From a phage: DNA of 44,388 nucleotides. A program made the translations under genes and the position numbers. Below the pieces are notes generated by a model. That model searched no databases. It was not told the origin of the DNA and worked only from the letters and a program-made list of their open reading frames with translations. Below, piece after piece: positions 39,904 to 41,590 of the stretch (position 1 is the first letter of the stretch; the number at the start of each line of letters is the position of its first letter). The stretch lies in sequence record PX136376.1; one strand, given 5' to 3'.

Positions 39904-40107
39904 ATGACCAGCATCTTATTTATCTGGGTATTGTCCGCAGGCCAGATGCAACTCGCAGCATCGGAAACGTTTTACTCGATGGAGGCGTGCCAGTCAGCGG
40001 CACGCGCTGCAGAGAACGCGCACTTTCTGTTTCAGGGCGACAAGCCCAACGATTCAGAGGTACGCGCTATCTGCTCACCTAAGCGACTTGGTAAACAGGA
40101 GAAGTGA
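39904..40107 (+). CDS. small secreted/membrane-anchored protein (67 aa)
   Basis: N-terminal hydrophobic segment ILFIWVLSAGQMQLAA. Confidence 0.45.
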   Translation: MTSILFIWVLSAGQMQLAASETFYSMEACQSAARAAENAHFLFQGDKPNDSEVRAICSPKRLGKQEK

Positions 40108-40109
40108 TT

Positions 40110-40301
40110 ATGGTACGGTTATATGAAGCACGAGGGGCTGAATTAGGGGGCGACGCATTCTACGAAGATTGGGTTGAGGTTGTTCGGTATGAAGATTACG
40201 CGAAACTTGAAGCTGAGTTACAGAAATACAAAGACCAGTACCCTGATTACGTCGAGTGCGCGAACTGCGGGTCGGTTACACATGTGGAAGGGGTGGAGTA
40301 A
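40110..40301 (+). CDS. hypothetical protein, paralog A (63 aa)
   Basis: RBS aggag 8 nt before ATG; shares YEDYAKLEAELQKY-type motif with next gene. Confidence 0.45.
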   Translation: MVRLYEARGAELGGDAFYEDWVEVVRYEDYAKLEAELQKYKDQYPDYVECANCGSVTHVEGVE

Positions 40302-40495
40302 TGGTGCAGAGATATGAGGTAAAAGCGTGGGGCCTGCCAGAGCCTGAGATGGCTGAGTACGCATACGGCGATTATGTAGAATATGACGCTTATCTGAAAC
40401 TTGAAGCAAAGTTACGTGAATTCGCTAAGCAGGTGCTAGATAGCCCGTGTGACTGGAAGACAAATGAATTAGCGCGCGAGATTCTTGGAATATGA
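40301..40495 (+). CDS. hypothetical protein, paralog B (64 aa)
   Basis: TAATG overlap; YDAYLKLEAKLREF motif paralogous to previous gene. Confidence 0.45.
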   Translation: MVQRYEVKAWGLPEPEMAEYAYGDYVEYDAYLKLEAKLREFAKQVLDSPCDWKTNELAREILGI

Positions 40496-40785
40496 GCCTT
40501 GCAACTGACATCCTGAAACGAAGCGGCCTTGCGCCGCTGTCACCGAGAGCGAAGACACGTATACACAAGCGTCGCCGTAACGTGCTGTACCCAGAGATAC
40601 AAGAACGGCGTAAAGCTATCCGCGCCTGTGGATTCCAGAACGGAAAGGCCGTGAATCTAGGAGAGTTTAAAACAAAGGAACGCGCAGCTATCGCGAACCG
40701 GCTATTTAATTACTGGAAATCGCTGGGGTACGATGATATTCCGACGAAACCACAGAGACGACAATACATCTGGAGACATAAATGA
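40492..40785 (+). CDS. basic hypothetical protein (97 aa)
   Basis: Lys/Arg-rich; ATGA overlaps both neighbours. Confidence 0.45.
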   Translation: MSLATDILKRSGLAPLSPRAKTRIHKRRRNVLYPEIQERRKAIRACGFQNGKAVNLGEFKTKERAAIANRLFNYWKSLGYDDIPTKPQRRQYIWRHK

Positions 40786-41222
40786 CTACTATCGCGTTTG
40801 ACGGAAAGACAATGGCCTGTGATACCCGTGTTGTGTGCGGGAGTAACTGTTACAACACAGACACAAAGATATACGAGAACGAATTTGTTGTTATTGGGGC
40901 GGCTGGCGATGCGGGGGTTGGTATCCTTTTAGTGGAGGACGATAGTATTTTAGTGCCTAAGCACTACGATTTTGATTTCTCTGCCTTGGTGTGGGTTAAA
41001 GACATCGAAACGTTGTGTAGGGTGGAGTTCTATAAATCTTGGGATTGTGCTCTTAGTTTGGTTATTCAGATTGCGGACAGCTTTTCCGCCGTTGGTTCAG
41101 GCGCCCCTTATGCCCTAGCGGCTATGGAATGTGGGTATTCGGCGCAAGGTGGTGTAGCAGTTGCATCGAAGTTCGACCCTGACACCGGCGGCAAGATTAT
41201 TACCAAACAACTATTAGGATAA
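40782..41222 (+). CDS. HslV-like Ntn-hydrolase peptidase (proteasome beta-subunit fold)
   Basis: N-terminal MTTIAFDG (Thr2 nucleophile position), VIGAAGDAGVG and AVGSGAPYALAA align with E. coli HslV MTTIVSV, IAGFAGGTAD, IAIGSGGPYAQAA (recalled); 146 aa. Confidence 0.65.
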   Translation: MTTIAFDGKTMACDTRVVCGSNCYNTDTKIYENEFVVIGAAGDAGVGILLVEDDSILVPKHYDFDFSALVWVKDIETLCRVEFYKSWDCALSLVIQIADSFSAVGSGAPYALAAMECGYSAQGGVAVASKFDPDTGGKIITKQLLG

Positions 41223-41236
41223 TTCCTACCCGTGGT

Positions 41237-41276
41237 ATCCTCCAGTTACTGCATACTTAATACGCACCTGGAGGAT
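41237..41276 (+). promoter_or_regulatory. inverted repeat able to sequester the holin RBS
   Basis: ATCCTCCAG (41237-41245) is exact reverse complement of CTGGAGGAT (41268-41276), which contains the GGAGGA Shine-Dalgarno of the holin gene. Confidence 0.4.
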
Positions 41277-41281
41277 TCATC

Positions 41282-41590
41282 TTGGATAAATTTACTGAAA
41301 CTGTGACGGGGTGGCTTCTCGCTGCCGCACTAGCCGGAGGGGTAATCGGACTAAGGCAACATAAGTCCGCTATTTCCGGCCCTATCGACGGCTTCTGCTT
41401 TATTGCAACTGGCTTCACTTGCGCCGTATTTGGCGCACCTCTCGCAGCTCAATGGTTTGGAATCACGGGCGACCGTGAAATCGCAGGCCTGGGCTTCATC
41501 ATTGCCATTCTCTGGATGCCTATCTATTCCCGCCTTTCTGGCATCGTATCGGGCGGCGATATTGCCCGCCCAGGAGGACCACATGACTGA
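41282..41590 (+). CDS. holin (three predicted TM helices)
   Basis: 102 aa; TM segments WLLAAALAGGVIGL, FCFIATGFTCAVFGAPLAA, IAGLGFIIAILWMPIY; TTG start inferred 6 nt after GGAGGA. Confidence 0.6.
   Translation: MDKFTETVTGWLLAAALAGGVIGLRQHKSAISGPIDGFCFIATGFTCAVFGAPLAAQWFGITGDREIAGLGFIIAILWMPIYSRLSGIVSGGDIARPGGPHD

Follow-up and report, generated by a model that had tools for sequence, protein, structure and literature searches.

The PPH gene and its locus

The window analysed here, a stretch of 44,388 nucleotides (sequence record PX136376.1), is an essentially complete siphophage genome of about 44 kb belonging to the genus Kagunavirus (Guernseyvirinae), and its closest relative is Escherichia phage GertrudWoker_Bas73, hereafter Bas73 (96% identity over 25 kb). 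The gene in question lies at positions 40782-41222, just ahead of the lysis cassette, and codes for a small proteasome-related protein of the PPH family. Genes and codons given by coordinates in the window are on the plus strand throughout. This open reading frame (ORF) starts with ATG and has 146 codons for 146 amino acids, the stop codon lying within the coordinates. The encoded protein reads MTTIAFDGKTMACDT...VIGAAGDAGVG...AVGSGAPYALAA...FDPDTGGKIITKQLLG, with MTTIAFDG at its N-terminus. The codon immediately before the ATG is an in-frame TAA (40779-40781), so that an N-terminal extension or propeptide is impossible and threonine is residue 2.

A Shine-Dalgarno sequence read from the sequence, GGAG (40772-40775, plus strand), is found 6 nt upstream of the start codon. 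It lies inside the 3' end of an ORF coding for a basic 97-residue protein (40492-40785), which matches phrog_9632 of unknown function and has no Pfam match. The TGA stop of this ORF overlaps the ATG of the PPH gene (ATGA), which suggests translational coupling. On the other side, the first holin of the lysis cassette (41282-41590, TTG start; phrog_2359, E 1.8e-31, in agreement with the Bas73 annotation) starts 59 nt past the PPH stop and is followed by a second holin, then by the endolysin. An earlier note on this DNA had described a 146-residue ORF beginning with MTTIAFDG, with threonine at position 2 and located directly upstream of a holin; the reading frame, the in-frame TAA and the phrog_2359 match bear out each of these points.

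Relationship to the proteasome/HslV superfamily

Bas73_0068 has the same amino-acid sequence (100% identity) and is labelled "peptidase HslV family protein" in GenBank; the labels of other relatives include "ATP-dependent protease", "protease", "NTN-hydrolase superfamily protein" and "hypothetical protein". Its match in the PHROG database is phrog_1040, 'peptidase HslV family' (E 1.2e-33). A first homolog search, based on a word index, brought up no relative below 77% identity, and the profile made from close relatives was discarded as it performed no better than the single sequence and gave a spurious top PDB match, ribosomal uS2. Distant relatives (25-37% identity) were gathered from IMG/VR and GTDB and used to build a diverse profile of 33 sequences, A2. 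Searched against PDB, profile A2 aligned end to end with the mature catalytic beta5 subunit of the proteasome (E 5e-11), and also matched HslV (4hnz, E 9e-10) and BPH, the Betaproteobacteria proteasome homolog (5ovu, E 1.3e-8). Eight of 33 diverse relatives matched the Pfam family PF00227 at E<=0.01.

Comparison by hhalign of a 64-sequence profile with E. coli HslV gave a probability of 95.7% (E 8.5e-9) with the catalytic residues in register; the HslV sequence used departs from PDB entry 5ji3 in one of its 176 residues (D/E). The alignment pairs VIGAAGDAG with VIAGFAGGTAD of HslV and AVGSGAPYALAA with AIGSGGPYAQAA of HslV, in keeping with the earlier note, in which the segments VIGAAGDAGVG and AVGSGAPYALAA had been singled out as common to both proteins. 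The NCBIfam equivalog models that define HslV were far from reached, with 11.6 bits for TIGR03692 (cutoff 157.75) and 11.3 bits for NF003964 (cutoff 137). The protein is a proteasome/HslV-superfamily N-terminal nucleophile (Ntn) hydrolase and not an orthologue of HslV. The designation of an HslV-like Ntn-hydrolase in the earlier note holds for the superfamily and for Thr2 as the predicted nucleophile, and does not hold for HslV proper.

Judged by the published features of the family, with the phrog_1040 match serving as a proxy for clustering, the protein belongs to PPH, which had been described before (PMC8665760). These proteins were defined as having about 140 residues, belonging to group I together with HslV and BPH, and lacking helix H2, a propeptide and the C-terminal S12/H5; they occur in Caudovirales and their hosts (PMC8665760). 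The finding is already known at the level of the family, since this description dates from 2021 and a paper from 2020 remarked that the jumbo phage pSal-SNUABM-04 encodes only HslV, with no HslU (PMC7823757). The exact protein has been annotated as well, and the window protein adds nothing categorically new to PPH, which has been termed the first branch of the proteasome family that is truly viral.

Fold and missing helices

The AlphaFold2 model of the protein, computed from the 64-sequence alignment, has a pLDDT of 94.0 and a pTM of 0.89. Foldseek comparison of this model with PDB retrieved BPH (5ovt, E 6e-7, TMq 0.73) and HslV (1m4y, E 7.5e-7; 6kui, E 1.2e-6), with bacterial and eukaryotic 20S beta subunits next. 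As modelled, PPH is structurally equidistant from BPH, HslV and 20S beta. The model shows a beta-sandwich core and keeps the H3/H4 helix pair at residues 108-116 and 121-131. In the place of the first helix pair, DSSP assignment on the model gives a stub of H1 (helix 46-51) followed by a loop, over residues 46-65 (40917-40976), and H2 is missing. Consistent with this, hhalign leaves a 19-residue gap in PPH opposite residues ~55-90 of E. coli HslV. The model ends with a strand (139-143) right behind H4, and there is no C-terminal S12/H5.

The model of a distant member, P0121 (32% identical; pLDDT 92.4), has an H1 at residues 44-56 and likewise lacks H2. With H2 absent from both models, its loss is a family-wide trait. 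With 146 residues against 176, the protein is shorter than HslV by the ~30 residues given in the earlier note. The hhalign alignment places ~19 of the missing residues in H1/H2, 9 where H3 joins H4, 4 in the hairpin at the N-terminus and 2-3 elsewhere, and a lineage-specific insertion of 7-8 residues (~84-90) makes up for part of the deficit. Neither the model nor the HslV alignment contains a connectase-like S3/S4 insertion. The protein has no signal peptide, and is thus predicted to be cytoplasmic.

Conservation of the catalytic residues

The first set of distant loci had been fetched by the pattern MTTIAFD, which makes any N-terminal conservation in that set circular. This was corrected by an index-free HMMER search of 1.84 billion representatives, which yielded 465 clusters at E<=1e-30, 9,470 at E<=1e-10 and 13,187 at E<=0.001; conservation was counted in 138 new top representatives, whose median length is 144 residues. 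The predicted N-terminal nucleophile after loss of methionine, Thr2 (codon 40785-40787, equivalent to Thr1), is threonine in 136 and serine in 2 of these sequences, and 129/138 start with M-T or M-S. Asp14 (40821-40823) and Lys29 (40866-40868), paired by hhalign with Asp17 and Lys33 of HslV, are each present in 64/64 and 138/138 sequences. Gly42 (40905-40907), within an A-G motif aligned to the 'AG' of HslV and beta5 and equivalent to the oxyanion-hole Gly47, is also invariant in both sets.

Further along, Gly105-Ser106-Gly107 (41094-41102) is aligned to the GSG of HslV, BPH and 20S beta (G-S129-G). Both glycines are found in all 138 representatives, and position 106 is serine or threonine in 135. 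The segment Asp132-Pro-Asp-Thr135-Gly-Gly (41175-41192) is aligned to 'RDAYSGG' of beta5; Asp132 is kept in 131/138 and position 135 is threonine or serine in 134/138. This D132-x-x-T-G-G fits the D166-x-x-S169-G-G of the proteasome better than E. coli HslV, which diverges there.

Conservation in PPH is highest at the catalytic residues and, across the family alignment, lowest on the surface. Within the Kagunavirus-type copies pairwise dN/dS is 0.13, and within the Jerseyvirus-type copies it is 0.14. That the catalytic network is conserved, with purifying selection acting on the gene, speaks for catalysis, and PPH may be expected to be an active peptidase.

The specificity of methionine aminopeptidase is the basis for expecting removal of Met1 ahead of a threonine. 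Together with the examples of E. coli HslV and BPH, it suggests that Met1 is removed from the window PPH. In the case of BPH, mass spectrometry showed that the start methionine is removed and Thr1 exposed, epoxomicin binds Thr1, and the protein has no unfoldase partner (PMC5777263).

Two groups of relatives have unusual ends. P0292 and P0317 carry what appears by eye to be a Sec-type signal peptide, ending ...SSA|TTIAFDG or ...ATA|TTIAFDG. In these, signal peptidase rather than methionine removal would expose the threonine, which implies exported PPH variants. At loci L061 (848-1672, 275 residues) and L081 (3959-4588, 210 residues), a PPH-like N-terminal domain is joined to a cysteine-rich C-terminal extension with CxxC-like repeated spacing.

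Comparison with related systems

The window protein has the features of the PPH family. It is small, with 146 residues and no C-terminal S12/H5, it has a proteasome-like core with the equivalents of Thr1, Asp17, Lys33 and the oxyanion Gly47, it lacks H2, its nucleophile follows directly on the start methionine with no propeptide, and it originates from a tailed phage with no AAA+ partner. The family is found in tailed phages and prophages of Proteobacteria without any conserved context, and the Kagunavirus protein, with relatives in many phage lineages, is alike in this respect. Nothing substantive sets it apart from the family; its lineage has an H1 of 6 residues versus 13 in P0121, and the 7-8-residue insertion.

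HslV (ClpQ) is the peptidase component of the ATP-dependent protease HslUV of bacteria, a double hexamer of twelve subunits that HslU activates. With HslV, the protein has in common an Ntn threonine exposed by methionine removal, as predicted here for PPH, the MTTI start, and Asp17, Lys33 and GSG in register. However, it falls 30 residues short of HslV, having no H2 and a reduced H1; it is also without the positions of the HslU tail pocket and of the basic pore cluster, is unlinked to hslU, and keeps the proteasome-like D-x-x-T/S-G-G. BPH (5ovs, 5ovt, 5ovu), the nearest relative with a solved structure, resembles PPH in having no propeptide and no partner unfoldase. Yet BPH has ~185-200 residues, with H1, H2 and a long acidic pore loop, forms 14-mers and is encoded chromosomally in stress-related operons (PMC5777263), whereas the segment for H2 and the pore loop is absent from the 146-residue PPH. 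Compared with 20S beta subunits such as beta5, PPH is ~60 residues shorter, goes without a propeptide or an alpha-ring partner, and lacks both H2 and the C-terminal H5. Connectase (6zw0, 8jtu) also has a proteasome-like Ntn fold in which the first helix pair is reduced, and it shows that reduced homologs can be monomeric and highly specific. Unlike PPH, it is archaeal, contains an S3/S4 helical insertion and often has a C-terminal domain.

Distribution and dispensability

In Guernseyvirinae, the gene order is fixed: small ORFs, the 97-residue ORF, PPH, two holins and the endolysin. The context differs elsewhere. A group of prophage-like siphophages, which comprises loci L053, L055, L056, L063, L072-L079, L028 and L085 (the last on a Yersinia massiliensis chromosome), has PPH between the head-tail adaptor Ad1 (phrog_477) and Neck1 (phrog_169), which makes it part of a late structural operon there, in contrast to the window. 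At other loci, PPH is found near the terminase or a DNA helicase. It lies in a three-gene island on the opposite strand within the tail module of Klebsiella Jedunavirus, amid auxiliary genes in Phapecoctavirus, between the lysis genes and the terminase in a Proteus phage, and amid small ORFs in a Vibrio phage. In jumbo phage SPN3US, PPH is gene 1 (L091, 1186-1677), and pSal-SNUABM-04 has two PPH-like copies per genome, ORF1 and ORF116 (PMC7823757). PPH-like proteins are thus encoded by jumbo phages of the SPN3US/Erwinia group, and the genetic and proteomic resources for SPN3US may already cover PPH.

No neighbouring gene recurred across the PPH lineages examined, and Fuchs et al. similarly reported no informative context and no co-occurring AAA+ protein (PMC8665760). 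The Ad1/Neck1 context of one prophage group pointed to head-tail assembly, but such a role was rejected as a general function, the context being different in every lineage examined.

Bas71 and Bas72, whose structural region shares ~93% identity with that of the window, lead directly from the 97-residue ORF to the holin and have no PPH. In the alignment, ~420 nt are cleanly deleted and only the final ~18 nt of the PPH gene remain (at ~1170-1250 of L088 in Bas71 and ~1690-1770 of L090 in Bas72). With the 97-residue ORF as locus marker (481 phage records), PPH was found in 298 records, corresponding to ~30% of the Escherichia/Kagunavirus records and ~72% of the Salmonella records with this ORF. 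The 97-residue ORF is more widespread than PPH and is kept when PPH is lost, which excludes it as an obligate partner. PPH itself is accessory. A core role in lysis was rejected as well: relatives devoid of PPH keep both holins, the endolysin and a probable regulatory hairpin (described below) intact.

The Kagunavirus isolates of the BASEL collection behave very similarly in defence-system assays (PMC11990801), so that no PPH-linked phenotype is evident at that resolution. These isolates form a handy system, with PPH in Bas73 and a natural clean deletion in the otherwise ~93% identical Bas71 and Bas72. They grow on E. coli K-12 with restored O-antigen, and taken together these traits make the function of viral proteasome homologs directly testable.

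Proposed mechanism and alternative explanations

Taken as a whole, PPH is probably a minimal proteasome-like Ntn threonine hydrolase which is independent of HslU and accessory to the phage. Host methionine aminopeptidase would remove Met1 and expose the amino group of the threonine as base and nucleophile, upon which PPH would be a constitutively competent peptidase, or possibly an amidase or transpeptidase. It would need neither HslU nor an AAA+ partner of its own, and its range of substrates, from host or phage, would probably be limited. As a mobile accessory gene, it would confer a conditional fitness benefit rather than a core function in replication, assembly or lysis.

Several points weigh against this explanation. 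As a single sequence, the protein scores 15.1 bits with Pfam PF00227 (Proteasome), below the gathering score of 22.4, and its best PDB match by phmmer is BPH at E 0.11. Peptidase activity is deduced from conservation; our literature search on PPH function, Kagunavirus HslV and Jerseyvirus transcriptomics found no functional data. Independence from HslU is drawn from missing structural elements and from analogy. In addition, BPH was without activity on standard substrates in vitro (PMC5777263). Although the Pfam threshold was missed, profile and structure evidence establishes the superfamily homology. The single-sequence matches in Pfam, NCBIfam and PDB were partial as well as below threshold.

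The earlier note also proposed that PPH co-opts HslU of the host or poisons HslUV as a decoy. E. coli and Salmonella, the hosts, encode HslU, and docking of PPH onto it would create a hybrid HslU-PPH protease redirecting ATP-dependent degradation to host or phage proteins. The MTTI N-terminus and GSG-PYA-AA motif, near-identical to those of E. coli HslV, would fit such a hybrid, as would a phage that itself encodes no ATPase partner: no AAA+ protein of the Clp, HslU or Lon type is encoded in the ~44-kb genome, whose sole AAA-type Pfam match is AAA_25 (RecA/DnaB-like) in a 752-residue primase-helicase. The lack of an adjacent AAA+ unfoldase, already pointed out in the earlier note, thus extends genome-wide, and no unfoldase is among the ten most recurrent annotated neighbour families of PPH either, so that linkage or co-occurrence with hslU was not observed. 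However, the pocket of HslV that receives the C-terminal tail of HslU is formed by Phe54/Phe57 in H1, Ala79/Lys80 in H2 and Gln114 (PMC6429459), and HslU binding remodels a cluster of Arg86, Arg89 and Lys90 at the end of H2 (PMC5777263). In PPH, a 6-residue helix and a loop stand in this place and nothing is aligned to HslV residues ~55-90. BPH, structurally as close to PPH as HslV is, keeps H1 and H2, has lost the HslU-interface residues and failed to pull down HslU (PMC5777263). The scores far under the HslV equivalog cutoffs also speak against docking, as do, more weakly, partial tblastn matches of PPH relatives, of uncertain family, in Microbacterium phages, no HslV being listed in Actinobacteria (PMC8665760). 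With most of the HslU-binding surface missing and the precedent of BPH, co-option of HslU is unlikely, to the point that we would give it less than a one-in-ten standing, and PPH is predicted to be independent of HslU. Consequently, labels such as "HslV" or "ATP-dependent protease" over-interpret this protein, a lesson for the annotation of its relatives. Phage inhibitors of host proteases are known, such as T4 PinA against Lon, and this precedent, the fold common to PPH and HslV and the nature of PPH as a small accessory protein of a lytic phage could fit a catalytically irrelevant decoy that sequesters HslU or co-assembles into HslV rings. But a decoy needs no catalytic network, and it does not explain the near-absolute conservation of this network, in which Thr, Asp, Lys, Gly and GSG are invariant across members only 25-35% identical. 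Moreover, the HslU-docking elements are absent, and within the family alignment conservation is lowest on the very surface that a mimic of HslV would need. A decoy is highly improbable.

Other alternatives retain catalysis and change its setting. PPH may be a free-standing, non-compartmentalised and sequence-specific Thr1 protease or transpeptidase, a monomer or dimer with an exposed active site and one defined target; loss of H2 and the shorter H1 may keep rings from stacking, by analogy with connectase, which is monomeric. Only connectase, without the first helix pair, and PPH/RPC, without H2, deviate in this region, and some homologs were suggested to be unable to form multilayer rings (PMC8665760). 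The reduction of H1/H2 in both models points the same way, as does the lack of a propeptide, which means that PPH activity must be restrained otherwise than by assembly-coupled processing. On the other hand, PPH retains H3/H4, which mediate ring-ring contacts in proteasomes (PMC8665760), and has no connectase-like S3/S4 insertion. We regard this possibility as unlikely. If true, PPH would cut or ligate one host target, e.g., a protein of immunity or of the stress response, or a factor in lysis timing, and a viral proteasome homolog would for the first time have a function assigned to it. A single target would explain purifying selection in some lineages and penalty-free loss in others such as Bas71 and Bas72. 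Many Ntn hydrolases are amidohydrolases acting on non-protein substrates, and since PPH adjoins the lysis cassette in Guernseyvirinae and in a Proteus phage, its substrate could be a small-molecule amide or a cell-wall peptide. This is very doubtful: the Thr1/Asp17/Lys33/Ser129/Asp166 set and all top structural neighbours are those of proteasome-type peptidases, the lysis cassette is intact in relatives that have no PPH, the window protein is predicted to be cytoplasmic, and in other lineages the gene is away from the lysis genes.

Other features of the region

The small ORFs upstream of PPH, which the earlier note counted among early/host-interaction genes, carry no functional assignment, and none of five of them was above threshold in the Pfam scan. 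A 65-residue ORF (40104-40301) shows a sub-threshold likeness to the restriction-alleviation protein Lar (PF14354, E 0.063, 14 bits versus a cutoff of 28.6), which may well be due to chance. A PADLOC search gave no match to a defence system. Scanning of 37.0-42.6 kb for sigma-70 promoters and intrinsic terminators gave signal no higher than the shuffled expectation.

Escherichia phage vB_EcoM_SHAK7693 (OR594180.1, our locus L005) is assigned to Autographiviridae/Kayfunavirus in GenBank and bears the 'M' of a myovirus in its name, while the order and sequence of the region are those of a Kagunavirus-like siphophage. The GenBank taxonomy of this record is probably wrong.

Between the PPH stop and the holin start, a 9-bp inverted repeat, ATCCTCCAG...CTGGAGGAT, was found at 41237-41276. 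Its 3' arm holds the holin Shine-Dalgarno sequence GGAGG (41270-41274), and the RNA fold has an energy of -23.6 kcal/mol (z = -3.0 versus shuffles). The repeat is identical in Bas71, Bas72 and Bas73, and survives the PPH deletion. The equivalent spot is annotated as a 'terminator' in Shelanagig. This hairpin probably serves in translational control of the holin, whose TTG start is also weak.

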